Shown: positions 4,517 through 35,462 of the stretch, piece by piece
Numbering within the stretch: the first letter of the stretch is position 1
Layout: each line of letters begins with the position of its first letter
Source: Bacillus sp. V59.32b
GTDB taxonomy: Bacteria > Bacillota > Bacilli > Bacillales > DSM-1321
Assembly: GCF_003429085.1 (NCBI RefSeq)
Contig: NZ_QVTC01000003.1
Coordinates: 19,173 to 59,172, forward strand
DNA: 40,000 nt
Reading direction: 5' to 3'
Translations under genes and position numbers: made by a program
Notes under the pieces: generated by a model
Seen by the model: only the letters and a program-made list of their open reading frames with translations
The model's database searches: none
What the model was told of the DNA's origin: nothing

Positions 4517-4545
4517 TTACATAAAAACCCAATTTACGATACTAT
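4517..4545 (+). promoter_or_regulatory. Candidate sigma-A promoter for the Gly-rich/OGG/kinase-NDT/QueC-like operon
   Basis: TTACAT (4517-4522), a 17-nt spacer, then TACTAT (4540-4545). It sits about 30 nt upstream of the RBS GGGAGGGAG. This is a pattern match in AT-rich DNA only. Confidence 0.3.
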
Positions 4546-4577
4546 AGATGTAAATGCTAGGGAGGGAGTTTTCAAAT

Positions 4578-4931
4578 ATGGGAGGAAGCGGTTATTCAGG
4601 AGCAAATAATGGTGGGTCTGGTGGAGGATTAGTAAATAATTGCGGGGATACATTAATACTCCAGCTTATTGTAAATCAGAATCAGAGTAGTATATGGTTA
4701 AATACTTCCCTCCACGATGCTGTTTATATAAATCTTAATAAAAATTCTGTTTTACCTATTATTGAGGTTTTAAAGCAAGTAGACAATACGCTTGTTGGGG
4801 TTGCCCCACCAAGCTACGGTTGGGTCATCGATTGCATTGAGAACGGCTGGCAGTACCAAGGAATAATTATTAAAAAAGAAGGAAGTCAGTATAATCCACG
4901 AATAACAGTAAAATTAGAAGGTTTAAAATGA
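4578..4931 (+). CDS. Small protein of unknown function with a Gly-rich N-terminus (MGGSGYSGANNGGSGGG...)
   Basis: The ORF track starts at 4554, but ATG 4578 is preceded by the RBS GGGAGGGAG at good spacing. The stop is 1 nt before the next gene's ATG (4933). No family recognised. Confidence 0.6.
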   Translation: MGGSGYSGANNGGSGGGLVNNCGDTLILQLIVNQNQSSIWLNTSLHDAVYINLNKNSVLPIIEVLKQVDNTLVGVAPPSYGWVIDCIENGWQYQGIIIKKEGSQYNPRITVKLEGLK

Positions 4932-4932
4932 T

Positions 4933-5658
4933 ATGGGTGATATTAAAGCGAATATTATTTTAAAGGAATTATGGGATATATATGGTGATTCAATAGATCA
5001 AGAATATAATTTATTTCAAAAATCAAAAGAACAAGTACTTGATGAGTTCTTCTTTGTATTATTAGGTGGTTTCGGAATCAGTTTCGAATTAAATTTATCA
5101 GGTCTTCAAATTCTAAAGAATCAAAGTTTATTTAGAAGAGAGTATTATAAAAGTCCAGATAACCTAGTGGCAATTGAAGAGAAGATTAGAGAACAGTTTT
5201 TCAAGAAACAGTTTACTCCTGCTACGTCTAATGGACAGTTGAGAAAATATAGATATATCGAAACAAAGCCTAAAATAATTTCAGAAGCTGGTTATTGGCT
5301 CTGGAAGAGCTGTGAATGGGAATTATTTGAGGAACTACATAAGTTTAATGCATTTGAGGCAAGGCTATGGTTATGTACTTGCCCTGGAATTGGGATGAAA
5401 TCTGCAAGTTGGTTTTTGAGAAACACAGGTTTTAATGACGATTGTGCTGTATTTGATGTTCACATATTAAGATTTTTAGATTATCTAGGTTTTCATGTTC
5501 CAAAGCAATTAACAGAAAGAATGTACCTTAAATTAGAAGATGCATTACGAAACGTTTGTGACAGTGTTGGTGTGACCTTAGGTAAGATGGATTATTTGTT
5601 ATGGTTGTTGTCCAGAAATGGGTTTCTTAATCACGTTGAACGGGGTGAGGACATTTGA
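4933..5658 (+). CDS. Ogg2/AGOG-like HhH DNA glycosylase (8-oxoguanine glycosylase family, COG1059-like)
   Basis: 241 aa. The motif CPGIGMKSASWFLRNTGFNDDCAVFDVHILRFL (from nt 5386) matches the archaeal-type Ogg pattern GxGxK(E/S)AS.FLRN...(L/F)D.HI, including the catalytic Lys and Asp positions. Confidence 0.75.
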   Translation: MGDIKANIILKELWDIYGDSIDQEYNLFQKSKEQVLDEFFFVLLGGFGISFELNLSGLQILKNQSLFRREYYKSPDNLVAIEEKIREQFFKKQFTPATSNGQLRKYRYIETKPKIISEAGYWLWKSCEWELFEELHKFNAFEARLWLCTCPGIGMKSASWFLRNTGFNDDCAVFDVHILRFLDYLGFHVPKQLTERMYLKLEDALRNVCDSVGVTLGKMDYLLWLLSRNGFLNHVERGEDI

Positions 5659-6920
5659 GCCTTTCGATATATGGAGAGATTGGAATAGACATCTTACTAG
5701 ACAATGATTCTAGTATTTTTTATAGAACTGGTGGAGCGGGTTTATACGCAGCAATTGCAGCCGCAAAACAAGAAATGAAAGTAAACTTCTTAACTGTTTA
5801 CGGTCCTGAAATAGACAAATATAGCATGAGATTTTGGGAGACGATGGGTGTTTCAACACAACAGTCTTTATACTTAGAGAACTATAATGTTCCTCGTTAT
5901 TTAGTAACAGGCTACAAAGCATTTGAAAATAAGTATAGTACACCGATGACCGATGTAAAAATCGGAGTTGATTATAATCCTAGCATAGAAAAAGATTGTG
6001 AAGGTTTATTACTTTTTCCAATTGATCACACATTACCTGAATCTTTGTGTAAGCAAGCATTAGAAAGAAATATTCCAATATTTTTAGATCCTAAACCAAA
6101 TAATAAGTCAATTCAACAAGCCAAGACTATCTTAGAATATGTAACAGTACTCTTAGTTAATGAGGAAGAAGCTTTACTTTTATCTGAATCAACGGATATC
6201 GATGAAGCTATTAATAAATTAAACGTAATGGGACCTAAGTATATAATTTTAAAAAGAGGACACAAGGGCTGTACTTTGATTTACGATGAAAAAAGAATAG
6301 ATTTTCCTGCTTTCAAGAGTAATGTTGTTTGTACTCTTGGATCGGGTGATGTCTTTGGAGGAGCGTTTGCAGTAACGTTTTTGAGAACTAGAGATATAGA
6401 ATATAGTGTACAAATTGGGAATTGCGCTGCAGCTAATTTTATCGAAAGTGTATCTATTGAAACTGTAATTGATAAAGCAGGGGTGGAAAAAGATCTTTTC
6501 CTTCGTGAGAAGCTTATTACAGATGAAAAACTTCTTAAAAAAATTTATTTAGCTGGTCCCTTCTTCAGTAAACAAGAAATAAACTGGGTTAAACAGATTA
6601 CTGATAGACTAGAAAGTGCTCGATTTAGAGTTTTGTCTCCATCACGAGAGAATGGAATCATTAATAAAGATATGTCGTTAGAACAGCGAAGAAAGGTTTT
6701 TCAATCTGACATTGATCTTTTAAACGATGCTGATGTCGTGGTAGCTTTACTAGATCATGATGATCCCGGCACATGTTTTGAAATCGGGTATGCTTATGAA
6801 AAAGGAATTCCTGTATACGGTCTTAAAACTTCTCAAAATGATTTGAATAATATGGTTCGGTTTGGTTGCAAGGAATTATTAGACAATATTGAAGATCTTA
6901 TAGGGATATTATATGGCTGA
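5655..6920 (+). CDS. Fusion protein: PfkB-family sugar/nucleoside kinase (N) + nucleoside 2-deoxyribosyltransferase-like domain (C)
   Basis: 421 aa. The N-terminus has the GG motif (TGGAGLYAA) and the PfkB signature TLGSGDVFGGAF (nt 6333-6368). The C-terminal ~125 aa carry IYLAGPFFS (6546-6566) and DHDDPGTCFEIGYAYEKGIPVYGL, the NDT (PF05014-type) pattern. The TTG start overlaps the upstream stop (TTTGA), with RBS GGGGTGAGG. Confidence 0.8.
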   Translation: MSLSIYGEIGIDILLDNDSSIFYRTGGAGLYAAIAAAKQEMKVNFLTVYGPEIDKYSMRFWETMGVSTQQSLYLENYNVPRYLVTGYKAFENKYSTPMTDVKIGVDYNPSIEKDCEGLLLFPIDHTLPESLCKQALERNIPIFLDPKPNNKSIQQAKTILEYVTVLLVNEEEALLLSESTDIDEAINKLNVMGPKYIILKRGHKGCTLIYDEKRIDFPAFKSNVVCTLGSGDVFGGAFAVTFLRTRDIEYSVQIGNCAAANFIESVSIETVIDKAGVEKDLFLREKLITDEKLLKKIYLAGPFFSKQEINWVKQITDRLESARFRVLSPSRENGIINKDMSLEQRRKVFQSDIDLLNDADVVVALLDHDDPGTCFEIGYAYEKGIPVYGLKTSQNDLNNMVRFGCKELLDNIEDLIGILYG

Positions 6921-7554
6921 GAATAAAGTTGTCTTACTTTTTTCAGGTGGGATTGATTCAACTGTTTTGTATTATTGGCTTGTGGATGCAGATTATGATG
7001 TATTCCCTATTCATATAAATTATGGTCAAACAACTTATCCAGGTGAAGTAAAAGCTATAAAAGAAATAACTCATGGAAAATTCCCAAGAAAAACTTTTTT
7101 TGTTGAGGTGCCTAATCTAAGAAATATAGGTACAGGATCACTAGTTGGTGACTTACCACAATCTGATTACTCCCAAGATAACTGGATGAAAAGCGAATTC
7201 TTTCCAAATAGGAATATGATTCTAATATCTATCGCAGCTTCATACGCCTATAAAATGGACATAAATAAATTGGCTATTGGAGTAGTAGGAGAGAACTCTT
7301 ATAGTGATACAGGGGCTGCCTTTATCACTAGTATTGCCGCAACATTGTCTGAGTCTTTAAATTCATTTGAATTAATTACACCTTTCGTAGGTAAAAATCG
7401 CAACTTTGTGGTTGATGAATGCCGACGATTGAATGTCCCTCTAGAGAAAACATTTTCATGTAATTGTCTGAGGAATCGACATTGTTTATTGTGTAGCAGT
7501 TGCCTGGACAGACAACACTTATTGGAGAGATTGGGAAAGCAAAATGCGTTTTGA
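6913..7554 (+). CDS. QueC-like PP-loop ATPase (divergent paralog of 7-cyano-7-deazaguanine synthase)
   Basis: 213 aa. PP-loop is LLFSGGIDST (6943-6960). The C-terminal Cys cluster is SCNCLRNRHCLLCSSC, matching the QueC Zn site. It is clearly diverged from the canonical QueC at 35767. It overlaps the upstream gene by 8 nt. Confidence 0.8.
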   Translation: MAENKVVLLFSGGIDSTVLYYWLVDADYDVFPIHINYGQTTYPGEVKAIKEITHGKFPRKTFFVEVPNLRNIGTGSLVGDLPQSDYSQDNWMKSEFFPNRNMILISIAASYAYKMDINKLAIGVVGENSYSDTGAAFITSIAATLSESLNSFELITPFVGKNRNFVVDECRRLNVPLEKTFSCNCLRNRHCLLCSSCLDRQHLLERLGKQNAF

Positions 7555-8003
7555 ACTTACTTGAGATAATTATTTCAATTAAGTTTGGATAAACTAAGTG
7601 GTTTCTTAATCAAAAAGGAAAATTTTGTTGAGTTAGATGGAGAGGGGTCAGATGATGAAGACTTCTTTTCTTTATTTAGTTTTGGAAATCTACTAATCAA
7701 GCGGAGCATGTTTTTAAGGGTCATCTTTTTCTTTTGGACTTCTTACAAGGGAAGAAGTAGAAATGAAGCAAGCATAGTTATGAAACTGAGAAAAATAGTA
7801 CGTAAGATTTAGAGTTTGGAAGGTTCTTGAAGACGATTAGTAGAAGTTGCGTTTTAAATATAATATCAGTAAGCACCTCACTGAAATCCGTAATAGGGAA
7901 CCGTATAATTAATGATATGTTTGTTATTTATTCTAATTCTATATTGAGACCATTAGGCTATAATAGAATCAACTCATATGCAACATGGATTGTCAACACT
8001 AAA

Positions 8004-8353
8004 CTAGACAACTTTTTTAAGGTGTTCAAGTTTATACTCAATCGGGCTTAAATAACCCAGTGTCCCATGAATACGAATGTGATTAAACCAATGAACATAG
8101 TCGTGCAATTCTCTTGTTAGATCTTCCAATGTATCGAAATTCCGGCCCTTCACAAACTCTGTTTTGAGGATTTTGAATGTTGCTTCAGCTACGGCATTGT
8201 CGTTTGGTGGCTCTCATGAAATATTTCGATGATGTCGGAAGTGATGTCATCTTCGGATTTTCTTTCTTTCGCTTCATAATAATAAGTGCTTCTAGGCAAT
8301 TGAAGGACGTCGTACATTTCTGATATCGAGTATTTGTGCTGGTTGTTCCGCAT
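8004..8353 (-). pseudogene. IS3-family orfB remnant (N- and C-terminal pieces joined, catalytic core deleted)
   Basis: The minus-strand translation MRNNQHKYSISEMYDVLQLPRSTYYYEAKERK...IIEIFHESH joins directly (about 8205-8215) to ...NDNAVAEATFKILKTEFVKGRNFDTLEDLTRELHDYVHWFNHIRIHGTLGYLSPIEYKLEHLKKVV*. Confidence 0.7.
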
Positions 8354-8358
8354 CACAT

Positions 8359-8642
8359 TTACTTTCGTCCTAGTATCAGCGCAGCTTGCTTTAAAATATC
8401 ATTCTCCATTTGTAACTGTTTGAGTTCCTTACGGAGCTTTACCAATTCTGTTTCTTCCGGTGTTCGGTTATCGGCTTCTTTGAATGAACCGGAGGCATTA
8501 TGTTGAGAGATCCACTTATCCAGAGAAGATGTGTTAGATCGTACTCACGAATAATATCCTTTCTTGGCTTCCCATTCTGATACAGCTGCACCATTTGATT
8601 TTTAAATTCTTCTGAAAACGTTCTTCGTTCTCTTTTAGTCAT
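8359..8642 (-). pseudogene. IS3-family orfA (HTH + leucine zipper), frameshifted
   Basis: MTKRERRTFSEEFKNQMVQLYQNGKPRKDIIREYDLT, then a frame change near 8528-8535. It continues as SSLDKWISQHNASGSFKEADNRTPEETELVKLRKELKQLQMENDILKQAALILGRK*. Confidence 0.7.
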
Positions 8643-8715
8643 CGTAGATTCTCCTCAACTATTGTATTAGTAGTCTACTTGACCTTAAATTTTCTGTCTA
8701 GATAAGTGTAGCCGT

Positions 8716-9096
8716 TCCAGCATGTAGTCTTCAATGTCCCTGGTCGACATGCCTTTTGCATAAAGGCCTATAATTAGGTCTTCCAATCCATTCGATGTAG
8801 TTTCAATACTTCGTGATAATCTGTGGTTCAAATTTGCCTTTTCTGTCTCTCGGCAATTTTAACTCTGTATTTCCAAACTTGGTTTTAACTCTTTTTTGGC
8901 TATATCCATTTCGGTTGTTTCCGGAATGGTCACCTTCGTTATCATGCTTCTTGTAACCCAGGTGATCGTCAATTTCAGCTTCCAATACATGTTGAATGGT
9001 ATTTTTGAATAGATCCTTCAACTTTTCCTGAATGTCTTTCACTGTCCGACAATCTTTCGCTAATTCTTTCGCCAACCAGTTTGTTTCGTTTTGCAT
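8716..9096 (-). pseudogene. IS256-family (mutator-type) transposase, N-terminal fragment, frameshifted and truncated by the IS3 insertion
   Basis: 97-aa ORF 8803-9096 (…EAEIDDHLGYKKHD…NGYSQKRVKTKFGNTELKLPRDRKGKFEPQIITKY). It continues after a 1-nt frameshift as TTSNGLEDLIIGLYAKGMSTRDIEDYM, then family similarity stops at about 8715. RBS AAGGAG lies upstream. The element end is probably near 9190. Confidence 0.7.
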
Positions 9097-9626
9097 AAAT
9101 GATCATCTCCTTGATGGTAAATTTAACCATTCGCAAAACTTCTTACATCCTCCTGAAAGTATTAATATCTTTTTTATCAATGCTTTATAACCCAATAAAA
9201 TCTTCAGAATATTTCCAAATTATCTGCTCGAAAACTCCTCGATCATGAACGTCTTCTTCTCTAAAGTAAATGCAATCCTATTGCATTACACCCTTGAAAA
9301 TTGTATCCATTATCACTCGGTCTTCCAATTCCTCCCATACTTGGCAATGCGGTAGTATTTTTAATTTATCTTCCATAGTATTTGACGCTCCTTTCTTCTT
9401 AATCTTCCAAGGAATTAAAGATGGTTCCTGCTAGTACACAAGATAAAATGAATTATTAGAGATTTTAATCCAATAAGAAATCGAATAAGCAGCAATCAAC
9501 TTCGTCTCCAGATCGTTTTTTTTCGAAATGAAATAATCATTGTTTTCACTATATAAATATATTTTCTACATAGATTTAATTTGTGATAGGATATATTAGA
9601 ATGCTTTAAATAAGGTGGAGGTTTTT

Positions 9627-11666
9627 ATGCAAAAAAAAGTATTGGTTGTGACTTCATGTACGGGCGAAAAAGTCCATCAACCAACTAATGAGCTCCAATT
9701 AAATGATTTTAAAGACGTTAGTATGTTAAAAAAGCGCGAAGAAGAACTCGCTTCATATAAAACTACTGCTGGAGAAATGTACACCGGAAAGCAACACGTT
9801 GCTTTAATGGAGGGTGTGAAGAAATATCGAGATCATGGTGGCGATATTGATGTAGCCATTTTATCAGCTGGTTACGGCATGTTGAGAGAAAACGATGTAA
9901 TTGTTCCTTACGAAGTAACTTTTAATTCAATGAGTGGTGTTGAAATAAAATCGTGGTCTAAATATATATCTATATCCCAAAAGTTGGAGAAATGGATAAA
10001 AGATTATGATTTGATTTTTTTCCTCCTAGGTGATAAGTACTTACAAGCTATTGAATGGCCTTTGAAAACAACAGAGGGTCAAAAGTTATTTTTCTTTGCA
10101 GGTGATGCAAGTAAGCATAAAGTTCTAATAGCTCCAAATCATTATGTTATTGCTGCCCGTGAATTGGAAGCAAAAATATTTAGATCAGGCCTTATTGAAT
10201 TAAAAGGATTTCTATTCAACAAGCTTCTTAGTTATGGAATTGAAAATAATAATATGTGGGAATCTATAGCAGAGTATCCTGAACGAATTAGAGAATATTT
10301 ATTAAGTTTCTATAAGTTAGGCCAACAAATATCCATGTTTGAAGATGAAGAATTGGAGTCTAAATTATTGTCTTTTTATACAATTGCTGTCCCGTATGAA
10401 AAATTGGCAAGAAACTATGGTTCTGAATTCATGTTTTATATTCCTGAAAATGATGATCGTGTGGATCCTCGATATGATTTTATTGAAGACTATTCAGATC
10501 CACAAAGGGATAGGTTGGTAGACGATGTATATGCACATGAGTTACACCATCAACCTCAATATGATGGAATTCTAATTTCGAAGGTAAATGTAGATAAGGC
10601 GACGAAAAAGAAAACCAGTATGATTCATGAAATGGGTATACGTGAATTCTTAAGGCTTCCTGATAACTATTCAATAATGGGAGATTGTGGAGCATTTAGC
10701 TATATTGGCAAGGAGTTACCTCCATATAAAACTGAAGAAGTTCTTAATTATTATAGGGATTTGGAATTTAATTATGGAGTATCAGTAGATCATTTAATTG
10801 TTGGATCATTTGCCAAAGATGAAGCAGAAAGAATTCGCAGATATGAAATAACCTTAAACAATGCAGAAGATTTTATAACAAAATATAAACAGAATAAAGG
10901 TGAATTTCGTAGGAAGTTTACTCCAATTGGAGTAGCGCAAGGTTGGGATCCAATTTCATTCCGAAATGCAGTATCTGACTTGGTTAAAATGGGATATGAA
11001 TACGTTGCGCTAGGTGGACTTGCTAGAGAAAAATCCTATACGATAGTTGAAATTTTAAAGGCAATTGCTCCTGTGATTCCAAATAATAATTTTAGAATGC
11101 ACTTATTTGGTGTGGTACGTGACAACATGGAAGTAATGAAAACATTTCATAAACTAGGTGCTACTTCTTTTGACTCTGCATCTCCATTAAGGAGAGCGTG
11201 GTTGGGCTCGGAACATAATTATTATGGTAAGAATCAGCATTTTTCTGCAATTAGAATTCCTGAGGCAAAAGAAAATACTGGTCGAGTTAAAAAATTGATA
11301 TCAGAGCAAGGTGGAGCATTCTCTGAATATAAAGCACTCGAAATGAAAGCATTAGATTCTTTAAGAGCTTTTGACCGGGGAGATATGGATCTAGACACAA
11401 CCTTGGAAGCAATTTTAGCATATGATGAAAGACTTGGAGAAAAACGTGAAAGGCACGCTGATTTTTATCGCGAAGTATTAAAAGAAAAGCCATGGAAGCA
11501 ATGTGGTTGTAACATATGTACTGAAATTGGAATTGATGTGATGATTTTTAGAGGTAATAATCGTAATCGAAGAAGAGGTTTTCATAATACCCATGTTTTT
11601 TATGAGCAAGTTACCAACTTGAAAAAAGAAATAAAATCAGAACTTCTTGTGCCAAATTCTTACTAG
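9627..11666 (+). CDS. dpdA: DpdA/TGT-like DNA(?)-guanine transglycosylase fused to an unknown ~300-aa N-terminal domain
   Basis: The C-terminal half has the TGT/DpdA motifs GDCGAFSY (10680-10703), VSVDHL, IGVAQGW, ALGGLA, MHLFGV, SFDSASP, the Zn motif CGCNIC (11502-11519) and FRGNNRNRRRGFHN. The N-terminal domain has VVTSCTGEK...MYTGKQH...ILSAGYGML...VPYE. ATG 9627 follows the RBS AAGGTGGAGG; the track start, GTG 9615, lies inside that RBS. Confidence 0.8.
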   Translation: MQKKVLVVTSCTGEKVHQPTNELQLNDFKDVSMLKKREEELASYKTTAGEMYTGKQHVALMEGVKKYRDHGGDIDVAILSAGYGMLRENDVIVPYEVTFNSMSGVEIKSWSKYISISQKLEKWIKDYDLIFFLLGDKYLQAIEWPLKTTEGQKLFFFAGDASKHKVLIAPNHYVIAARELEAKIFRSGLIELKGFLFNKLLSYGIENNNMWESIAEYPERIREYLLSFYKLGQQISMFEDEELESKLLSFYTIAVPYEKLARNYGSEFMFYIPENDDRVDPRYDFIEDYSDPQRDRLVDDVYAHELHHQPQYDGILISKVNVDKATKKKTSMIHEMGIREFLRLPDNYSIMGDCGAFSYIGKELPPYKTEEVLNYYRDLEFNYGVSVDHLIVGSFAKDEAERIRRYEITLNNAEDFITKYKQNKGEFRRKFTPIGVAQGWDPISFRNAVSDLVKMGYEYVALGGLAREKSYTIVEILKAIAPVIPNNNFRMHLFGVVRDNMEVMKTFHKLGATSFDSASPLRRAWLGSEHNYYGKNQHFSAIRIPEAKENTGRVKKLISEQGGAFSEYKALEMKALDSLRAFDRGDMDLDTTLEAILAYDERLGEKRERHADFYREVLKEKPWKQCGCNICTEIGIDVMIFRGNNRNRRRGFHNTHVFYEQVTNLKKEIKSELLVPNSY

Positions 11667-11724
11667 AAAAATAATAAAGTTCCTTGTTTATATTGTGTAT
11701 CTAGAAAAATTAGACTGGTGTAAG

Positions 11725-11755
11725 GAAAGAGGTAACTCTCTTTCTTTTTTTTTTT
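11725..11755 (+). terminator. Rho-independent terminator after the dpdA-fusion gene
   Basis: Stem GAAAGAG (11725-11731) pairs with CTCTTTC (11738-11744), with a 6-nt loop, followed by an 11-T run. Confidence 0.7.
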
Positions 11756-11812
11756 AGGAATGATTTAATGTTTTTAAAGGTTTATAAATATACTTCAATT
11801 CGAGGTTAAGAG

Positions 11813-12631
11813 ATGGGTAATTTAAAAATCAATAACGTCAAGAAATTAAATCGCAGAGATAAAAATCATCTCTATCTCTATATTGCTTCCTCAAATGAAA
11901 TAAAAGAATGGAAATTAAAAAATGGAGACCCTTTTTTAGGGGGAGTCGATGGAGTTCTTTATTTAACCTGTCTTGATATAATGGAGTGTTTTTGCGTTAA
12001 TTCAAACCAATTATCTATAGAAATTACAGCTCCCTTATTAAGATCTGATATTGGTATAAATATTAATAATGACTTTTTAGTGGTTATTCAAAAGCAAAAT
12101 CTTCAAGACACGGTTAAAAGTATGTTTCAAAATGATTCATTACTCAATACATGGATTGAAATAAAGGGTTCCCGAGTTAGTAAAAATTCCCTAAAAGTTA
12201 TTACAATAAACTCATTAAAAAACATTATGAGTACACTTTTTAGTAATAATAGTATCTCTGAAACAGAGGAATTTACGACTTTTCTGCGGATTTATCTACA
12301 AGAATTTATCAAGGAGAACTCTATTTATTTTCCGTATAGTGTAAAACAAATGGTAGAAATTAAAGAAAGCACTGTCGTCCATAGTGTGAATACTTGGTAT
12401 ATTTTGATTAAGTATTTTAAAGAGCAATGGGAAAACTCATATGAACAGGGTATAAAGGCTCCAATATTTTTAAAAGAAATTACATATAAAAATTGGCAAG
12501 GTAATTTCTTCGATAGATCAAGTCCCTTCTGGCTAGAGTTCAACAAAGATTCTAAACGTCCTTTTTATCCTAGTAAAAGTAATCAAGAAATAATTTATAA
12601 AGCTTGGAAAGATCTAACCGAACCTTCTTAA
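11813..12631 (+). CDS. Hypothetical protein, monocistronic, between the two DpdA paralogs
   Basis: 272 aa with RBS GAGGT upstream of the ATG, bracketed by terminators on both sides. The N-terminal ~50 aa (…IKEWKLKNGDPFLGGVDGVLYLT) faintly resemble an AbrB/SpoVT-type swapped hairpin. No family recognised. Confidence 0.55.
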   Translation: MGNLKINNVKKLNRRDKNHLYLYIASSNEIKEWKLKNGDPFLGGVDGVLYLTCLDIMECFCVNSNQLSIEITAPLLRSDIGININNDFLVVIQKQNLQDTVKSMFQNDSLLNTWIEIKGSRVSKNSLKVITINSLKNIMSTLFSNNSISETEEFTTFLRIYLQEFIKENSIYFPYSVKQMVEIKESTVVHSVNTWYILIKYFKEQWENSYEQGIKAPIFLKEITYKNWQGNFFDRSSPFWLEFNKDSKRPFYPSKSNQEIIYKAWKDLTEPS

Positions 12632-12650: not shown

Positions 12651-12683
12651 TATTTTTAGAAAAAAGTATATATAATTAATCTA

Positions 12684-24281: not shown

Positions 24282-24286
24282 TTATT

Positions 24287-27517: not shown

Positions 27518-28160
27518 AATAGCTGAAACTCGTAAAACGTTTGAAGAGTATAATAAAGTTTATACTGATCTTCAAAATGTTAAAAAAATAAACTCCTTCA
27601 GCCAATATGCTAAACAAGAATTGAAAAAGTGCAAAGATATCCTTGAAAGTTACCGGGCCCTCAATCAAATGGACGATGATATTTTTCCAAAACGAAGCAT
27701 GGGTTACGAACTCAAACAACTTGAAGGATTATTTAATTACGACTTGGCTAAATTGAATAGAGATGAAGTATCCTCCTTTCAACGAACTTTAAAGAAATTA
27801 GATGATCACTGGAAAATGCGGTGGACAGTATATGTCCAAAATAAAAACCAGGACCTTATTGGTTTATTAGAAAGACTAAAGAACATTGTCAGCAATCCGC
27901 AAGAAATAGAGCAATTAATTATGTACTTAAAACAATTTGAAACTGTATGGCCGGTGTCATCAGCCAAATTGTCCAGGTATCATGAATATCTTGCACAAGC
28001 AAATAAAGTGGTTTCCGACATGAACGCAAGTCAGGGTGTGCAGGAGTTTATTGGAAAAGTGGCAGCCAATAATGCCACCATTGAAGATTTGAATGACGAA
28101 GTGATCAGTTGGTTGCGCGAACAGCAGTTAACGAACAAGTTATTTATTAAATTCAAGTAG
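27504..28160 (+). CDS. Small coiled-coil-like protein, positional equivalent of DpdI
   Basis: ATG 27504 follows the RBS AAAGGAG and overlaps the upstream gene by 14 nt. 218 aa, rich in K/E/L/Q. No family motif recognised. Confidence 0.55.
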   Translation: MLLNKIAETRKTFEEYNKVYTDLQNVKKINSFSQYAKQELKKCKDILESYRALNQMDDDIFPKRSMGYELKQLEGLFNYDLAKLNRDEVSSFQRTLKKLDDHWKMRWTVYVQNKNQDLIGLLERLKNIVSNPQEIEQLIMYLKQFETVWPVSSAKLSRYHEYLAQANKVVSDMNASQGVQEFIGKVAANNATIEDLNDEVISWLREQQLTNKLFIKFK

Positions 28161-28177
28161 TAAGGAGAATTCCCATC

Positions 28178-31100
28178 ATGAAACGGACTGATTTTGACAT
28201 TCTTGCTGAAGAAATATTAACGCAAATAGAAATGAAGGAAAACCAGTTACTCGAATGGGGATTTATTGGAGGTGGGATTGATGCAGAAGAGGAAATAAGG
28301 ACTCTTCTGCTCAACCCTCCTACTTCTTTATTGGAAGAGTTGATTGGCGGATTAGGCATTACTGAAGGGGACACTTTTCGAATTTTGAATAATTTAGTGG
28401 ATAGGAAACTATTATTCCAACTAAATCCGAAGCATTTATATCGCTCACGTTTTGCTGAGACGATTCGGTTGCTCTATTTATTAAAGCAGCGCTTTACCCA
28501 TGAAGATTGGCACACGGGGAAAAACCTTGTGAGCAACATCAAGCCTATGCTTTCTTACAGAAAATATCCTCGCCGAAATATCACCTTGACTTCCATTAAT
28601 GAAGAATTAAATTCGGTGATTGGAATTTCCAATATCCATAGAAAAGTTGTTTCAACATTACTTAAAGGTGGAGAATTGTTTCTCTCACAATTCCAAATGG
28701 ATTCAATGGTACGGATTTTGAATCAATCCCGAAGTAAATTTGATTCAGGCACTGTTATTGGAGCCGGAACGGGTTCCGGAAAAACGAAATCTTTTTACAT
28801 ACCAGCTTTTGCATCTCTTATTGAGGCAGTTACAAAGGATCAAACCAATTGGACAAAAATCATTGGTCTTTATCCTCGTGTTGAGCTATTAAAGGACCAA
28901 TACCGTGAAGCGTTATCAGAAATTCTGGCATTAAATTCACTTTGCAGGGAATTTGGAATTCGTCCCCTGACCATAGGTGGTTTATTTGGTGATACACCAA
29001 AAGTTGCAAAGGATGTACAAAGCCATAAAGATCGCAAATGGGATAAAACACTAAAAGGGTATGAATCACCGTTTTTTATATGTCCAGAATGTTCCCACCC
29101 GATGGTTTGGCGGGAAGAAGATGTTGAAGAACAAGTTGAAAGGTTGCATTGTTCCGAGTGTAAAATGGTAATAGGGGAGGAGAATATCGTCCTGACAAGG
29201 GACAGAATGAACCGGACTGCACCTGACATCCTCTTTACTACAACTGAGATGATAAACAAAAAGACACCCAACTCATTTGAAAATCAATTATTCGGTGTCT
29301 ATGCACAAAAGCCGCCAATGTTGGTCCTGCTTGATGAAGTTCATATATACGAAGGCATTACTGGAGCACATGTGGCATATTTGCTTAGACGCTTGAAACA
29401 CTTGATAAAACAGTGGCACCCAAACCGTGGAATCCAGTTTGTAGGTCTATCAGCTACATTGTCAAACCCAAGCTCCTTCTTTTCTCAATTAGTTGGTTTA
29501 GAAGAAAAATACATTGAATACATAACACCGCAGGAGAAAGATTTAATGTCTGAAGGGATTGAATACAATATGGTAGTCCGCGGGGACCCGTTTTCAGCTG
29601 CTTCTCTTTTGTCGACATCTGTCCAGACTGCCATGTTATTAGGCCGGATGCTGGATCCGATTAACACGAATGTTTCAAAAGGCGCCTACGGTTCGAAGTT
29701 ATTTGGTTTTACCGACAAATTGGATGTTATTAACAGGTGGTTCCATATCGAATTGGATGCTGAACGGGAAAAAAATTTGAGCAAGCTTCGTGATCAGGGA
29801 GAAATCAGGAGAGAAATCAAAGGCAATCCTAATTTGACCGAGCGATATAAGGCAGGACAATTATGGCTTGCTCCAAATCAAATTGATGAACGGGCTTTAA
29901 AAACCCCATTGGACGTTGACATTACATCGTCCCAATATAAAGGAGTAAGTGAAAAAGCAAAACTTGTCATTGCAACTAGTACATTGGAAGTCGGCTATAA
30001 CGATCCAAAGGTAGGCGGAGTAATCCAGCATAAAGCTCCAAGAAATTTGGCTTCTTTCATGCAAAGGAAAGGCCGGGCAGGCCGTGTCAGGGGGATGAGG
30101 CCTTGGATGGTCGTTATTTCATCTGCCTACGGCCGTGACCGTTTCATTTATGATTACCCTGAGTTATATTTCCAGCCTAATTTAAATGAAATGTATTTGC
30201 CAATCCAAAATTCAAATGTAATCAAGATACAAATGTTGTTTGCGTTTATGGAATGGTTAATGGACCGTTTTTATAAGCAGTCAAAACTGCTTGATGTCAG
30301 GGACAAGTTAAGTGCAAAAGGATATGTCCGAAACCCGAATTATTCCGAACTCATTTTATCGATTGTGAGACAAGTGCTTGAAGGAAACGATCAGGATTTG
30401 GTGGAATATTGGCAGAAATCACTCCAACTTGACGCAAAAACTCTTACAAGGATAGCCTGGAGCGAACCGAGGTCGTTCTTTTTTGATGTTTTACCTACTT
30501 TGTATACGCAGCTGAAAGAGCATTTTTCATTCATTGATGAAGAAGAACGTTCGAACGATCCGTTTGTCGGTTATATCCCAAGGACATTGTTCTCGTCATT
30601 GGACATTTCCGAACTGGCCCTTCACATTCCCAACTCGAACAAGGTAAATCATCAACCTCTGGTTCAAGGGATTATGGAGTTTGCACCTGGCAACGTTTCG
30701 AAAAGGTATGTTAATGTGTACAAAATGAAAGAGGCTCATTGGCTTCCAGTTGGAACGGATGGAATTGTAGATGTAAAATCTGGCGTAATGAATTCCCGAT
30801 TGATTGAAACTCTTCAGGTAGAAGGACAGAGCATTCCGGTTTTCGAACCAGTTTCTATTAACCTGGAAAGCATCCCGTTTTCTGTTTCTGACAGATCATC
30901 TGGAAAATATAATTGGAAACTGGATATTAAGCCAATAAAAAATACGTTCCAGAACAAAATAGAATTTCCAATCCAAAGTTCTCTAAGGTCTGTATTCGAT
31001 AAGGTCGAGTACTTCACAAGTGATGAGCACAATTACACAAAACTCACGAGATTTGCAATCAATGGTGAAGGAGTTCAAAAATCCAGTAAAGGGGAAGAGA

Positions 31101-32638
31101 CACCTTTTGTATCCAGATTCGAATACCAAGGCAAGGACTGCGCACTCGGATTCCAACGCTATGTTGACTCAATTATGTTCGATTTACAAACAGTGGATAC
31201 AAATAGATTATTGGATGCGCCGCTTGCTCAACAAATCATCTCGGTCTCAAAACCTGCTTTTTTTGATTATTTATTAATGACTGACCCGGAAGTTTCCCAA
31301 AGGCTAAATGTTTTTCAACGCGGTTGGCTGGCCCAAATTGCCCTATCTTCCGTCATGGCAATTTGCATTAGCAAAAAAGTTACGATGAAGAATGCAATAG
31401 AAATTTACAAAAAAGACCTTGCCGGCATTTCAAAAAGAACGCTCGAAGCAATCTTCCTTTCCACGATTGCCAAAGATGAGGATGATCAGGCTACAACTTC
31501 AAACGATCCAAAAGTAAAAAAGAACCTTCAGTCCTTCATTGAAGATTCTTCGTTAATGGATTGTATCCTTAAGCATATCGAATCACTTGAAGGTGACCTG
31601 AAAGACAACAGACAATTCCACCACTGGATGCAATTAACCATCATTGATTCAATGGCAGCGGCACTTAAAGCAGCCCTTGAGGAAATGCTTCCTGACGTTA
31701 ATACCGAAGATACCAATATCGACGTCATCGGGAACCGTATATTGATATCTGAAACAGAATCAGGCGGATTAGGGATCATCACAAAAATTGTTTCATCGCT
31801 AAAAAACAATCCCGCTGTATTCGAAGAATTAATTTTAAGCAATATTAATAATTGCCAAAGACATATGATTGCTTCTTCTATAAAATCCGTTTTAAACCAT
31901 ATTGAGGATAACAACCTTTCAGACTTAATAGAAAAAATACGCGAGGAACAACGTGTTGAATTCCAGCAGGAATATCTGGGGAAATTGCAGTCCCTTCTTG
32001 ACCAACTTGGCATACCTCCGAAAAGGGATCTTATTATGGCTATGTCGAGCAAGTTTTTCCGCAGCAACCGCTCTGCAAAGACCGATTTGTTTATGAAGGA
32101 AATACATGAAGACTGGGAAAATGAAGAAGATAGATTGAAATTTCATATTCAACCAAATGTCTTTTCTGTAGCAAGTTTGAAACGGGAAGAAATGGACACA
32201 AGGTTAAGGGGCCTTATGGAAGATGCAAATCTTCAGTTAACAACTGAAAGGCAAACTTTTTTATTCCTAGAATCCTTTTTAGTACATGATTGCCACGATT
32301 CCTGCCCGGAATGTTTGAATATATATAGTTCCTTCCAGTCATTCCTTAAACCATCAAGGTTATTGTTAAAAGCATTGGTGAAACCAACACATGAGATACT
32401 GCATTATCCAAGCCCTGACTTTTTTGAAGAAGCAACAAAGACTCTTGAGTTAGAAAAACGATTGCGGATTGTTCTATCGACTATGGAAAAGAAGGCATTC
32501 CAGACTGAATTATTCCGTTTATTCCATACTCCAATAGAATTTAAATTCCAATTGTATTATCCATTTTTAGAAAGAGTGACGAATAATGGGGATAATTGGT
32601 TTTATGACGTGAGTGTTAGGGAGGTGTCATATGTCTAA
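28178..32638 (+). CDS. dpdJ: 1486-aa DEAD/DEAH-box helicase with a Zn-ribbon insertion and a C-terminal Cys cluster (DpdJ-like)
   Basis: GAGTGSGKT (28760-28786), LLDEVH (DEVH at 29333-29344), GLSATL, TSTLEVGYND, and QRKGRAGR. There is an inserted CPEC...CSEC ribbon between motifs I and II, and a C-terminal CHDSCPEC (MrfA/DUF1998-like). Confidence 0.8.
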   Translation: MKRTDFDILAEEILTQIEMKENQLLEWGFIGGGIDAEEEIRTLLLNPPTSLLEELIGGLGITEGDTFRILNNLVDRKLLFQLNPKHLYRSRFAETIRLLYLLKQRFTHEDWHTGKNLVSNIKPMLSYRKYPRRNITLTSINEELNSVIGISNIHRKVVSTLLKGGELFLSQFQMDSMVRILNQSRSKFDSGTVIGAGTGSGKTKSFYIPAFASLIEAVTKDQTNWTKIIGLYPRVELLKDQYREALSEILALNSLCREFGIRPLTIGGLFGDTPKVAKDVQSHKDRKWDKTLKGYESPFFICPECSHPMVWREEDVEEQVERLHCSECKMVIGEENIVLTRDRMNRTAPDILFTTTEMINKKTPNSFENQLFGVYAQKPPMLVLLDEVHIYEGITGAHVAYLLRRLKHLIKQWHPNRGIQFVGLSATLSNPSSFFSQLVGLEEKYIEYITPQEKDLMSEGIEYNMVVRGDPFSAASLLSTSVQTAMLLGRMLDPINTNVSKGAYGSKLFGFTDKLDVINRWFHIELDAEREKNLSKLRDQGEIRREIKGNPNLTERYKAGQLWLAPNQIDERALKTPLDVDITSSQYKGVSEKAKLVIATSTLEVGYNDPKVGGVIQHKAPRNLASFMQRKGRAGRVRGMRPWMVVISSAYGRDRFIYDYPELYFQPNLNEMYLPIQNSNVIKIQMLFAFMEWLMDRFYKQSKLLDVRDKLSAKGYVRNPNYSELILSIVRQVLEGNDQDLVEYWQKSLQLDAKTLTRIAWSEPRSFFFDVLPTLYTQLKEHFSFIDEEERSNDPFVGYIPRTLFSSLDISELALHIPNSNKVNHQPLVQGIMEFAPGNVSKRYVNVYKMKEAHWLPVGTDGIVDVKSGVMNSRLIETLQVEGQSIPVFEPVSINLESIPFSVSDRSSGKYNWKLDIKPIKNTFQNKIEFPIQSSLRSVFDKVEYFTSDEHNYTKLTRFAINGEGVQKSSKGEETPFVSRFEYQGKDCALGFQRYVDSIMFDLQTVDTNRLLDAPLAQQIISVSKPAFFDYLLMTDPEVSQRLNVFQRGWLAQIALSSVMAICISKKVTMKNAIEIYKKDLAGISKRTLEAIFLSTIAKDEDDQATTSNDPKVKKNLQSFIEDSSLMDCILKHIESLEGDLKDNRQFHHWMQLTIIDSMAAALKAALEEMLPDVNTEDTNIDVIGNRILISETESGGLGIITKIVSSLKNNPAVFEELILSNINNCQRHMIASSIKSVLNHIEDNNLSDLIEKIREEQRVEFQQEYLGKLQSLLDQLGIPPKRDLIMAMSSKFFRSNRSAKTDLFMKEIHEDWENEEDRLKFHIQPNVFSVASLKREEMDTRLRGLMEDANLQLTTERQTFLFLESFLVHDCHDSCPECLNIYSSFQSFLKPSRLLLKALVKPTHEILHYPSPDFFEEATKTLELEKRLRIVLSTMEKKAFQTELFRLFHTPIEFKFQLYYPFLERVTNNGDNWFYDVSVREVSYV

Positions 32639-33137
32639 TCGGATTATTCGTTCATTTGGGGGAAGCACTGTCCTTAGGGATTATTTAGTCTCATTGTTTG
32701 TAGCAGAAGCAATGAATCCAAGCCCGGAATTGTATTTGATTTCACCATTCTTAAGCAATTCGCCTTTGATTGAGAACAGGAATAATCAGTATACAGATGT
32801 ATTTCCTTTGATTAAGTCCAAAACAATTTACCTTTCAGATATCCTTTCCACTTTAGCGTGGAAAGGAGTTTCAGTCAGAGTCATTTGTGACAATGATCGT
32901 GACGAAACGAAGCCGTTAATAGATGCACTTTATCATCAGGTAAAGTTCAGAAAGTTGGAACAAAACCATGATAAAGGGTTAGTATCCAACAATGTCTTTG
33001 TCCATGGTTCAATGAACTTTACGTACAGCGGTATCTATTTGAACAAGGAAAGTTTAAGGACAACAACTGAATTATCAGAAATAAATGAAGCTCTTATTTC
33101 ATTTAGGCAGCGTTGGGAGGAGTCGAAAATTATATGA
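32631..33137 (+). CDS. dpdK: PLD-family (HKD) nuclease-like protein (DpdK-like)
   Basis: A single HKD-type motif, HDKGLVSNNVFVHGSMNFTYSG (HDK at 32967-32975). ATG 32631 follows AGGGAGGTG and overlaps the dpdJ-like stop by 8 nt. Confidence 0.75.
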   Translation: MSNRIIRSFGGSTVLRDYLVSLFVAEAMNPSPELYLISPFLSNSPLIENRNNQYTDVFPLIKSKTIYLSDILSTLAWKGVSVRVICDNDRDETKPLIDALYHQVKFRKLEQNHDKGLVSNNVFVHGSMNFTYSGIYLNKESLRTTTELSEINEALISFRQRWEESKII

Positions 33138-35395
33138 ATACCTCAAGAATAGAATTCCTGCGCTTTTTACTAAAAATGAGTGAAGCCGACTATAAATCCA
33201 AAGAAATAAATGGACAATTTTTTGTGGACCAGTCTATTTTTCAAGAAATGGTCAATCGCTTAACAGAAGGACTAACAGCTATTTTGCCTTTTCAAAACAA
33301 GGGTGAGACAGTATGGCTTTGCTTACAAAGTGATGAGCAAACTTTAACATTTGATTATTCATCGTTAAAAAAGTTCATTTCCCCATACAACATAGATGAC
33401 GTTGTCCTAAAGCGCATGTTTGTAAGAGACACTTCAGAGCTTGGTCGTCTGGGCAGCGACTTGTTTCCGAACGGGTATTATATGTTCAAAACAAGCAATG
33501 CTGATGTAAATAAAATTTGGGAATTACTTAAACTTTGGTTGATAGTGTTAAACAGAAAACCTACAATTAAATGGCAGGAATCGGTCATAAATGCTTATAC
33601 ATTAAGAAATAAATTTAGAAATCATCTTGGGATGATGGAATGGGCGGAAGCGGAGCAAACATTAAATGTAATCCGTGACGGCCACTATGTTTCGGATGAA
33701 AATTTCTTATTTCTGTATGTAGAATTGTTATCGGCCCAGAGCAAATGGAAAGATATCTGGTATTGGAAAGAATTCGAAACCTTATCCGGTCTGCAGAGAC
33801 TTCCCAAAGAAGTTAAAGAAGCAATGTTATCTGCATTTTATTTTGTCAATTTGGCAGATGATGAAGTGAACAATGATTTTGAAAAGAGTTTTCAAAAGTT
33901 TACTGCTAATCGTTTTCGACTGAGTACTTTATTGCATAGTCATCTCGGAATAATGGGCGACCATATTTACCGGATTTTTGCTTATCAATCTACATTTGAG
34001 CAAAACCTTGAAAAACTTTATTTCATAAAAGATCAGGTTAGAGACGATGAGACTTTAAATTTAATCTGTTATTTAGAAACAAAGTTTTCTGAAAATCCTG
34101 TTCGTGTTTTACCTCCAAGTGTATCGTCTGAGGAAAGAGCAAAACAATTTCTGATAAATCGTCAATACGATGATGCATATTTAGCCTTAAAAGATTGCGA
34201 TAATTCAAAAGAAAAAGTGGGTATGTTATCTGTTCTAGGTTTCGAGACCGGATCAAGTGAGATCCAGAATGAAACCTATCAACTGTTTTTAGAACTTCCT
34301 AAAGCAGCGCAAGATAGTTTATCAAAAGATAATAAAACAAAGAATTACATTCTCTTTATTAAAATGACGAATGAGGGAATACAAAAAAAGGCTCGTCAAG
34401 AAGACATAAAATATACTTGGAACCATTGGTTTCTAAAAGTTTTAGAAACAGATACCGAATCATTTGATCCGTTGTTTGAAGTTTTATATGACCAGGAGAA
34501 ACTTCCCTTGTTTATTTGGTCGCCTTCAATGGTAGTGGAATTAAGTAATATTGTTTTGGAAGTAGCATTGTCAACTTTAGATTCAAAAAAAACTGTAGTA
34601 CTTAATGAAGGAATTATAATCTTTATTTCTGAATTAATCCGTGATAAAGAATTTCCGCGGACAATTGCAGCAGATTTATACGCTGATTCAGTTGAACTTC
34701 TTTTGCTTCATTGTAATAAGAATAAAATTAATACGAATCATTTAAACCGTCTTTTCGAGGGCTTGCTTCAGATCAATGTGGTTGAAATTGATAAGTATTG
34801 GCACTGGGCAAGCCAATGGTATTCCATTACTCCAATGAATATTATGATTCCCAACCTTTTATTTACGCTTGAGCTGTTTTGTGATTATGGTCAGAAGTTG
34901 GAGGATTTAAGCAACGTTTGGAACCAATGGACTTCCACACTGTTAAATGGAATATCAACGTTATCAGACATAGAAATTATTGATTGGGTAAAGATTGGCC
35001 AAATTATCGGTGGGGAAAAGTTTTTAATTAATAAAGTGCAAGATTTAGTTGAAAATGAAATAACTGAAATAGAAGAACTGGAATTAGCGCCAGTAACCTC
35101 CATAGTGATTTTTACATTAAGAGAAAATGCGGCCAGACGTGCAGCTGAACAACTTGTGATGAGAAATCCTAATTTAAAGATCCGCATAAATATGGATACT
35201 CATCTAACAACACAGGCAAAAAGCCTTGCAAGTTCCTCGGATGTTGTTGTTCTTGTTACTACAGCAATGAAACATGCTTTGTACTACGGAATTACTCCAT
35301 ATATAAAAAACGAGCCGGTTTATCCTAGTTCATCGGGCACATCAAGTATTGTTGTCGAGATAGAAAAATACTTTAAAAGCTTAGTAACAATTTAA
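33134..35395 (+). CDS. 753-aa protein of unknown function, last gene of the operon
   Basis: The ATG overlaps the PLD gene's stop (ATGA), with RBS GGGAGGAG. Mostly helical-looking. The C-terminal ~110 aa (IVIFTLRENAARR...SSSDVVVLVTTAMKHALYYGI) faintly resemble a small Rossmann-like DUF2325-type module (memory-level impression only). Confidence 0.6.
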   Translation: MNTSRIEFLRFLLKMSEADYKSKEINGQFFVDQSIFQEMVNRLTEGLTAILPFQNKGETVWLCLQSDEQTLTFDYSSLKKFISPYNIDDVVLKRMFVRDTSELGRLGSDLFPNGYYMFKTSNADVNKIWELLKLWLIVLNRKPTIKWQESVINAYTLRNKFRNHLGMMEWAEAEQTLNVIRDGHYVSDENFLFLYVELLSAQSKWKDIWYWKEFETLSGLQRLPKEVKEAMLSAFYFVNLADDEVNNDFEKSFQKFTANRFRLSTLLHSHLGIMGDHIYRIFAYQSTFEQNLEKLYFIKDQVRDDETLNLICYLETKFSENPVRVLPPSVSSEERAKQFLINRQYDDAYLALKDCDNSKEKVGMLSVLGFETGSSEIQNETYQLFLELPKAAQDSLSKDNKTKNYILFIKMTNEGIQKKARQEDIKYTWNHWFLKVLETDTESFDPLFEVLYDQEKLPLFIWSPSMVVELSNIVLEVALSTLDSKKTVVLNEGIIIFISELIRDKEFPRTIAADLYADSVELLLLHCNKNKINTNHLNRLFEGLLQINVVEIDKYWHWASQWYSITPMNIMIPNLLFTLELFCDYGQKLEDLSNVWNQWTSTLLNGISTLSDIEIIDWVKIGQIIGGEKFLINKVQDLVENEITEIEELELAPVTSIVIFTLRENAARRAAEQLVMRNPNLKIRINMDTHLTTQAKSLASSSDVVVLVTTAMKHALYYGITPYIKNEPVYPSSSGTSSIVVEIEKYFKSLVTI

Positions 35396-35431
35396 ATTCC
35401 ATTTTATCTCTAAAAATCGATAATAATACTG

Positions 35432-35462
35432 CTCTCTATTGCTTGAAAGAGGGCAATTTTTT
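35432..35462 (+). terminator. Rho-independent terminator ending the dpd-like operon
   Basis: CTCTCT (35432-35437) pairs with AGAGGG (35448-35453, one G-U), with a 10-nt loop, followed by CAATTTTTT. Confidence 0.6.

Follow-up and report, generated by a model that had tools for sequence, protein, structure and literature searches.

Gene content of the locus

We analyzed a 40,000-nt stretch of the genome of Bacillus sp. V59.32b (contig NZ_QVTC01000003.1, positions 19,173 to 59,172, forward strand; hereafter the window). Every sizeable open reading frame (ORF) between 4554 and 38287 lies on the plus strand, and this span consists of four blocks: a four-gene cassette containing a QueC-like enzyme, decayed insertion sequence (IS) debris, thirteen genes of a dpd region, and a riboswitch followed by que genes and a transporter gene (Table 1). 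As judged from its sequence, the region 9615–35395 very probably encodes a Dpd-type 7-deazaguanine DNA modification–restriction system with a Bacillales-specific architecture, supplied by the block at 35674–38287. The cassette at 4578–7554, by its gene content and distribution, is an independent element that is chemically allied to Dpd and is not part of it.

An earlier note, made from the sequence alone, had described one Dpd-like island of 31 kb at 4517–35462, with thirteen co-oriented genes in a low-GC Firmicute. The organism is a Bacillus, and the QueC-like, TGT2, and 272-aa proteins are 100% identical to NCBI entries for strain V59.32b. The guanine-plus-cytosine (GC) content across the window ranges from 0.28 to 0.41. 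The Dpd part is shorter, at ~25.8 kb, because 4578–7554 belongs to the separate cassette; similarly, the count of thirteen is correct for 9615–35395 and not for the wider interval, which holds 17 co-oriented ORFs. All thirteen Dpd-region ORFs are intact, and 8 of the 12 junctions between them overlap or are no more than 17 nt apart, in line with the overlapping or abutting genes described in that note. The region is not one operon; terminator-like hairpins lie 3' of the genes ending at 11666, 12631, and 17085, which suggests four transcription units. A promoter scan returned fewer matches than shuffled sequence and provided no information. The IS debris is ~2 kb in length and matches by blastn, at 77–81% identity, IS3 transposase genes carried on plasmids of Peribacillus and Priestia; it forms a spacer between the cassette and the Dpd genes.

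Table 1. Features of the window between 4578 and 38287 (aa, amino acids; NCBIfam cutoffs in brackets)
Feature	Position	Strand	Basis or remark
Small protein, 117 aa	4578..4931	+	N-terminus MGGSGYSG..., Gly/Ser-rich disordered tail, HIRAN-like domain; not Dpd
OGG-type helix-hairpin-helix (HhH) DNA glycosylase-like protein	4933..5658	+	Pfam Ogg-HhH E 2.4e-21
PfkB ribokinase-like kinase fused to nucleoside 2-deoxyribosyltransferase (NDT)	5655..6920	+	Pfam PfkB E 6e-24, Nuc_deoxyrib_tr E 3e-20
QueC-like PP-loop enzyme, 213 aa	6913..7554	+	Pfam QueC E 1.6e-36
Decayed IS3-family and IS256-like transposase fragments	7555..9614	.	Short broken ORFs, transposase-like translations
DpdC::DpdA fusion, 683 aa	9615..11666	+	DUF6884/DpdC at about residues 1–150; DpdA transglycosylase at 273–668
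Fast-evolving protein at the DpdB position, 272 aa	11813..12631	+	Faint likeness to the C-terminal half of DndB, no DGQHR
TGT2, minimal TGT-family protein, 299 aa	12721..13620	+	tgt_general
Possibly DpdG-like protein, 251 aa	13620..14375	+	hhalign against DpdG
P-loop NTPase with DpdH-like N-terminal ATPase, 925 aa	14308..17085	+	hhalign against DpdH
DpdE, SNF2/BrxHII-like helicase, 1108 aa	17469..20795	+	NCBIfam E 2e-114, full length, 383.6 bits (below 500); PADLOC E 3e-81
DpdF, RecQ-like helicase, 862 aa	20788..23376	+	NCBIfam 582.6 bits (550)
DpdG, 273 aa	23460..24281	+	NCBIfam E 4.8e-17, 62.3 bits (below 80)
DpdH, large BrxC-like P-loop ATPase, 1079 aa	24278..27517	+	NCBIfam E 1.1e-79 over residues 14–1033, 269 bits (below 450)
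DpdI, 227 aa	27477..28160	+	Weak, mainly positional assignment; NCBIfam E 4.5e-4, 20 bits, end-to-end alignment
DpdJ, YprA-family helicase, 1486 aa	28178..32638	+	NCBIfam 1235 bits (800)
DpdK, PLD-family nuclease, 174 aa	32613..33137	+	NCBIfam 124 bits (100); Pfam PLDc_2 E 4.9e-9
DpdD, 760 aa	33113..35395	+	NCBIfam 395 bits (300)
preQ1 riboswitch aptamer	35674..35716	+	Rfam RF00522, 42 bits (gathering score 39); 50 nt 5' of queC
queC, queD, queE	35767..37630	+	NCBIfam QueC 277, QueD 101, QueE 382 bits, all over cutoff
YhhQ/VUT-type queuosine-precursor transporter	37757..38287	+	TIGR00697 E 3e-11, 43.5 bits (just below 50.95)

Dpd genes and the missing DpdB

The proteins of the region were compared with hidden Markov models (HMMs) of the Dpd families. 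DpdA, D, E, F, G, H, J, and K gave E-values of 5e-17 to 0; five lie above the curated equivalog cutoffs, a level reached among the restriction genes by DpdD, F, J, and K. DpdE, G, and H match their models over the full length. The assignments of DpdE, G, H, and I are backed by position and by PADLOC models, and the PADLOC Dpd models agree with the NCBIfam assignments. A Logan contig carries at the DpdG position a gene (264-aa call, later start) that matches Pfam PF28110 DpdG. Thus, the proteins between 17.5 and 33.1 kb match DpdE–K, DpdI weakly, and the Dpd assignment, first made from synteny and architecture, is upheld by alignment to curated models. The helicase and PLD motifs cited in the earlier note are present. 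The SNF2 protein has LADEVGLGKT and DETH, the RecQ-like protein has DEAH, and the helicase of 1486 aa has DEVH; the DpdK motif is HDKGLVSNNVFVHGSMN, a HxK...N...GSxN variant of the PLD signature with N replacing the usual D. A Walker A motif, GDNGSGKS, was also read. The DpdK start is likely ATG 32631.

A tblastn search with DpdJ recovered the Enterobacter cloacae plasmid pPOL9A and other plasmid dpd clusters annotated by the Prokaryotic Genome Annotation Pipeline. The previously proposed DpdE-F-G-H-I-J-K order is found both in the window and in pPOL9A, each continuing to DpdD, and the window DpdI occupies the slot of the E. cloacae DpdI-like gene. The two loci differ in orientation: dpdB, dpdA, and the DpdC-position gene of pPOL9A are divergent from the restriction genes, whereas the modification genes of the window are co-directional with them.

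Two TGT/DpdA-like enzymes had been noted, and both were found, the fusion and TGT2. The transglycosylase domain of the fusion scored 460 bits against the DpdA equivalog NF041059 (cutoff 200). Its N-terminal ~150 residues matched Pfam DUF6884 (47 bits, cutoff 30), the DpdC domain (PMC12235509), as well as PADLOC DpdC (E 1.7e-10) and, locally, the DpdC-position protein of pPOL9A (E 4e-7). By these matches, DpdC is an N-terminal domain fused to DpdA, unlike in canonical Dpd. In the alignment, the fusion retains Asp95, Asp130, Asp256, and the Zn ligands. Asp95 and Asp256 are essential in DpdA of Salmonella enterica serovar Montevideo (PMC10164549), and neither they nor the Zn ligands vary in the two window enzymes. 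TGT2 scored 60.8 bits against tgt_general (cutoff 47.6) and matched the DpdA model with an E-value of 2e-21. Ins1 is missing from TGT2, as is most of Ins8. The latter insertion is specific to DpdA; in the S. Montevideo enzyme it accounts for 30% of the protein and, in a DNA-complex model based on small-angle X-ray scattering, is located close to the modification site (PMC10164549).

TGT2 is the first member of a trio, overlooked in the earlier note, that lies between the modification and restriction genes. For the 251-aa protein, hhalign against DpdG gave a probability of 41.8% and an E-value of 2.7e-4 over 194 columns, which is suggestive and makes it possibly DpdG-like. The 925-aa protein aligned with the DpdH ATPase domain (probability 97.4%, E 1.2e-11) and contains the Walker A motif GSTGSGKS; the alignment of its orthologues begins at M17, and the true start is probably ATG 14356. 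In the loci compared, the ~250-aa protein is always encoded directly 5' of the P-loop gene. TGT2 has 177 homologous clusters; most of those with organism names belong to the Bacillaceae and Paenibacillaceae.

The DpdB of Salmonella, a DGQHR/ParB-like ATPase, is needed for preQ0 insertion and DpdA activity (PMC10164549). The corresponding position in the window is taken by the 272-aa protein. It matched Pfam DndB with an E-value of 0.0045, and two of its four orthologues also match DndB (best E 2.6e-7). As a candidate DpdB it gave an hhalign probability of 0.3% against pPOL9A DpdB and no BLASTP match to it. A word-index search returned only two homologues, and the AlphaFold2 (AF2) model built from a two-sequence alignment had a predicted local distance difference test (pLDDT) score of 36 and was unusable. 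In Bacillus infantis, a 498-aa DndB-like protein with ADGQTQ where DGQHR is expected is encoded upstream of the fusion gene (positions 4749–6245 of the retrieved locus). The window lacks a counterpart of this protein and has IS debris at the corresponding position; the B. infantis protein may be a divergent DpdB that the window has lost.

The DpdC::DpdA fusion, the ~270-aa protein, TGT2, the ~250-aa protein, and the P-loop protein constitute a five-gene front module that was also found elsewhere. In B. infantis it is followed by DpdE, F, and G. On plasmid pART37 of Paenibacillus sp. 37 it is flanked by queE-D-C and a VUT gene and followed by DpdJ-K-D and a second set, DpdE-F-G-H-I-J. In Paenibacillus polymyxa SC2 (CP002213, locus positions 6951–20124) the place of dpdE–K after the module is taken by genes for a 955-aa protein and a UvrD-family helicase. 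A VUT gene adjoins the module in both pART37 and P. polymyxa. A metagenomic locus carries a distant TGT2 (35% identity) with two partners beside DpdJ-like, DpdK, and DpdD proteins, and no other TGT. A contig scan of genomes with the fusion protein matched only a canonical Sphingomonas DpdA. The DpdB-less layout is conserved at 40–72% protein identity across other genera; its recurrence indicates that it is not a one-off, and this degree of conservation implies selection.

Side observations were made on pART37. The P-loop protein, DpdJ, DpdK, and a 935-aa DpdD are encoded directly 3' of its TGT2 trio, ahead of the second set, and the plasmid has two DpdJ and two DpdH-like genes (23683–24491 region of the retrieved loci). 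From this arrangement, pART37 looks like two stacked Dpd restriction sets. The island ends (27446–32520) with a 947-aa protein and a UvrD helicase, like that of P. polymyxa SC2; this pair may be an alternative restriction module.

The preQ0-biosynthesis operon that the earlier note placed immediately downstream was confirmed as queC-queD-queE, with two corrections: queF is absent from the operon, and a transporter gene stands at the end. Similarly, dpd islands are commonly flanked by QueC, D, and E and YhhQ genes (PMC12235509).

The window shares with Dpd of S. Montevideo (dpdA–K) and pPOL9A the DpdA protein with catalytic Asp95 and Asp256, the DpdC domain, DpdD–H, J, K, and possibly I, and with canonical Dpd the preQ0 synthesis genes and YhhQ-type transporter alongside. 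It differs from canonical Dpd in the lack of a DGQHR DpdB, the fusion of DpdC to DpdA, the extra conserved trio, and several components that score below cutoff. Phage DpdA functions without DpdB. The paper on phage DpdA-only systems contains 95 mentions of DpdA and none of DpdB (Hutinet et al., 2019, PMC6884629). Such systems have in common with the window a TGT-family DNA transglycosylase and preQ0 genes without DpdB; the window system differs in being chromosomal and in having a full DpdD–K restriction block and the DpdC fusion.

From the family assignments, synteny, catalytic residues, absence of DGQHR, and recurrence of the module, we infer the following chemistry and phenotype. QueD, QueE, and QueC, encoded in the riboswitch-controlled operon, would produce preQ0. 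The DpdA domain of the 683-aa fusion would exchange guanine in DNA for preQ0 using an Asp nucleophile and an acid/base pair, a double-displacement mechanism being established for S. Montevideo DpdA (PMC10164549), and the fused DpdC domain would hydrate the nitrile to the amide, giving dADG (deoxy-7-amido-7-deazaguanosine). DpdE, DpdF, the BrxC-like ATPase set DpdG/H/I, DpdJ, DpdK, and DpdD would restrict unmarked DNA. Judging from its conservation, the ATPase-bearing trio may supply the energy-dependent DNA handling of DpdB or a second transglycosylase specificity.

The QueC-like cassette and the flanks

The small protein encoded at the start of the cassette begins at ATG 4578, preceded by a strong Shine-Dalgarno sequence, AGGGAGGGAG, and has the N-terminus MGGSGYSGANNGGSGGG... 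Of 28 representative homologues, 25 were inspected. The called N-terminus reads M-G-[GS] in 22 of these, and in another this motif begins at an internal Met, the start having been miscalled. Conservation of G2, C22, and C86 across the family is 90% or higher. In the AF2 model (pLDDT 85.9), residues 3–19 are disordered and precede a compact domain. The top Foldseek matches were L. plantarum lp_0118 (3k2y) and the HLTF HIRAN–DNA complexes 6kcs and 4s0n, with TM-scores of 0.52–0.70 and a probability of 1.0 but modest E-values (5e-3 to 5e-2).

The QueC-like enzyme is 26% identical to the housekeeping QueC and scored 111 bits against NCBIfam QueC, below the cutoff of 150 (PADLOC QueC E 1.4e-30). 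Its Protein Data Bank (PDB) matches include QueC (2pg3) and Cap9 (9nto_B, E 9.5e-9), and SGGIDS, FPNRN, and the Cys cluster are present, so that the PP-loop and the Zn cluster are intact. The PfkB–NDT fusion matched ribokinase (1vm7) and an N-deoxyribosyltransferase (6evs) in the PDB. The OGG-like gene occupies the same position in three of the other loci that carry the cassette (L003, L004, and L015), and its product is of the same family type as Cap11, by family label.

In other genomes, the three enzymes of the cassette are 51–77% identical and the small protein 34–68%. The cassette lies between Wadjet-like and BrxC/TerB genes in Desulfitobacterium hafniense and near Zorya in Thermohydrogenium kirishiense, where the OGG gene is missing; it is also present in Paenibacillus sp. 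NPDC058174 and a fermentation metagenome. None of these four has a dpd or TGT gene near the cassette. A metagenome scan with a QueC-like profile returned mostly distant QueC homologues, together with one full cassette (L015), one partial cassette (L014), and one Thoeris-type Cap9/10/11 operon (L018). In relatives, an HD/dGTPase-like gene lies on the 3' side of the cassette (L003, 10837–12712; L006, 10837–12763), joined in Paenibacillus by a guanylate kinase gene; these may be extra cassette components. No remnant of either gene was found downstream of the QueC-like gene in the window.

Three defence systems offer a comparison. Type IV CBASS CD-NTases begin with M(G/S)G(G/S)GG, and Cap9 ligates 7-carboxy-7-deazaguanine to their Gly2 (bioRxiv 10.1101/2025.04.06.647259); Thoeris TIR proteins encoded with Cap9/10/11 carry a similar signature (bioRxiv 10.64898/2025.12.03.692087), and in Qat systems the glycine at QatB's N-terminus is essential. 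The conserved MGG(S/G) start and disordered Gly-rich tail of the small protein fit this signature of QueC-family substrates, and by analogy the protein is a probable deazaguanylation substrate. The cassette shares with the Cap9/Cap10/Cap11 systems of CBASS and Thoeris (Wassarman et al., 2025) a QueC-family enzyme with SGGxDS, RN, and a Cys cluster, an MGG(S/G) partner, and an OGG-like glycosylase; it differs in that the partner is a 117-aa HIRAN-like protein and a PfkB kinase/deoxyribosyltransferase stands in place of the TGT. As no CD-NTase, TIR, or Cap10 TGT was found in the window cassette or in L003–L007 and L015, the cassette is not type IV CBASS or Thoeris. With QatABCD it has in common a QueC-family enzyme and a partner protein with an N-terminal glycine. 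However, the QueC-like enzyme has 213 aa against ~400 aa in QatC, lacks the QatC extensions, and keeps the canonical substrate motifs, and neither the QatA KAP ATPase nor the QatD TatD nuclease has a match in the cassette.

TGT2 was considered as a Cap10-like partner of the cassette and rejected: it keeps the Zn site that Cap10 lacks, and in the loci examined it is a constant companion of dpd genes, never of the cassette. As a side observation, the Thoeris-type operon in L018 (1483–4345) contains genes for a TGT-like, an OGG-like, and a QueC-like protein, the last of 197 aa, and for one of 161 aa that starts with MSGSGGSY and, by eye, is possibly TIR-like; the operon resembles Thoeris with Cap9/10/11 (bioRxiv 10.64898/2025.12.03.692087).

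The sequence of the QueC-like enzyme is consistent with QueC "Cluster 4", a mostly proteobacterial group (Libby et al., 2026, PMC13329287), with which the enzyme shares a length ~10 residues below that of canonical QueC, a YGQ...E motif, a variant Cys cluster, and an adjoining PF00294–PF05014 fusion. Purine salvage was proposed there for "Cluster 4" and the PfkB–NDT protein, and no small MGG-protein is mentioned; this protein, unannotated so far, changes the purine-salvage reading. By analogy, the cassette plausibly works like the CBASS, Thoeris, and Qat deazaguanylation systems, the part suggested for Cap10 falling to the deoxyribosyltransferase/kinase. The QueC-like enzyme would ligate 7-carboxy-7-deazaguanine to Gly2 of the HIRAN-like protein, whose fold is one that binds DNA 3' ends. 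Next, the free N9 of the base now linked to the protein would be the site at which the deoxyribosyltransferase and kinase form a (deoxy)nucleoside or nucleotide, so that the protein would be tethered to sugar or DNA. Such a role has been suggested for the Cap10 TGT but is unproven. The OGG-like glycosylase would reverse the link.

The surroundings have the look of a defence island. On the minus strand at 1808–4078 lie genes for a 641-aa Schlafen group 3/DUF2075-type helicase (Pfam E 6e-94) and then a 109-aa MazG-like pyrophosphohydrolase (E 2.7e-24), probably a further defence pair beside the island; the helicase matched PADLOC PDC-S41 (E 1e-17), AbiO (E 1.6e-15), and Nhi (E 3.5e-13). At 6–1444 there are an intact IS630-family transposase gene (237 bits) and a 136-aa ORF with a PADLOC PDC-M36A match in its C-terminal part only and a faint Mrr_cat match, probably a truncated Mrr-like gene. 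In the ~1.3 kb 3' of the transporter gene (38300–39640), no ORF is convincing and neither Rfam nor tRNA matches were obtained. A serine-hydrolase-like gene with a signal peptide begins at 39654 and runs past the window edge.

Alternative readings and implications

Several points weigh against a working Dpd system at 9615–35395. DpdB was not found: in the window, to which this search was limited, NCBIfam NF041060 has no match (477 bits for the control, pPOL9A DpdB), and a DpdB gene could lie elsewhere in the genome. Nor does DGQ[HQ]R occur in any of the six frames of the window or of the compared loci, comprising 85 kb of pART37 (L008, L010) and the B. infantis (L011), P. polymyxa (L012), and metagenomic (L013) loci, whereas the Enterobacter (L009) and Sphingomonas (L002) controls were positive. 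DpdE, G, H, and I fall below the NCBIfam equivalog cutoffs, the DpdI match being weak, and the IS debris lies just 5' of dpdC::dpdA, where its insertion could have removed the native promoter. The lack of DpdB and the IS630, IS3, and IS256 sequences in and around the island would also suit a decaying, non-functional remnant of IS activity. Yet all thirteen ORFs are uninterrupted, including those of 1486, 1108, and 1079 aa, and other genera keep the same layout, which makes decay improbable. It is scarcely credible that the helicase/nuclease block is a modification-independent BREX- or DISARM-like defence and that the TGTs modify tRNA only; DpdE, DpdH, and DpdJ are indeed homologous to BrxHII, BrxC, and DrmA/YprA (bioRxiv 10.1101/2025.09.15.676423; PADLOC), but the best matches are Dpd-specific models by large margins, and the 460 bits of the DpdA equivalog compare with 27 bits for tRNA TgtA.

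A different division of labour within the Dpd region was also weighed, in which the DNA transglycosylase at work is TGT2 and not the fusion, or TGT2 is an additional one for another motif, with the 925-aa ATPase and 251-aa protein replacing DpdB as the motor and two Dpd lineages merged. In the metagenomic locus, TGT2 and its partners (250 aa and 1171 aa) stand beside DpdJ-like, DpdK, and DpdD proteins with no other TGT, although the flanks there extend just 10 kb on each side; TGT2 keeps Asp95, Asp256, and the Zn site; and in pART37 the trio is directly followed by its own DpdJ-K-D set. The GC content, 0.28–0.31 over 11–18 kb (the DpdB-position gene, TGT2, and the P-loop gene) versus 0.38–0.41 over 21–32 kb (dpdF–dpdJ), hints at separate origins for the front module and the restriction block and suggests a mosaic. 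We nevertheless regard this division of labour as rather unlikely, given that TGT2 lacks most of Ins8 and that in the Bacillaceae and Paenibacillaceae loci examined it always occurs together with a full DpdC::DpdA fusion. Far less probable still is the view implicit in the earlier note that 4.5–35.5 kb is a single island, in which an alternative deazaguanine or nucleoside, made by the products of the QueC-like, kinase/NDT, and OGG genes, would be inserted into DNA by TGT2. The genes are co-oriented and adjacent and 7-deazaguanine chemistry figures in both parts, but the cassette occurs without nearby dpd or TGT genes in the four other settings named above, B. infantis, P. polymyxa, and pART37 have the Dpd module and not the cassette, and 2 kb of IS debris separates the two in the window.

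The Dpd-type system with a fused DpdC::DpdA thus remains our preferred reading of 9615–35395. We found no paper describing the Bacillus/Paenibacillus Dpd layout. A GATOR-GC survey that required both dpdA and dpdB reported only 11 Bacillota windows (PMC12235509), so a DpdB-less Bacillales lineage was probably missed. A more novel reading, somewhat less likely than not, is that the cassette is an undescribed protein-deazaguanylation system and, separately, that Bacillales Dpd can deazaguanylate DNA without DpdB by means of the TGT2/DpdH-like ATPase module.

To our knowledge, Dpd is the largest known restriction-modification system. A DpdB-less lineage with a DpdC–DpdA fusion and an extra trio provides a natural comparison for the roles of the DpdB ATPase, DpdG, and DpdH. 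The HIRAN/QueC-like cassette is the more novel element of the two, and with four genes it is a system easy to reconstitute. The question in the deazaguanylation field is the acceptor of the protein-linked base; the DNA-end-binding fold of the cassette and its putative deoxyribosyltransferase suggest that this acceptor may be deoxyribose or DNA.

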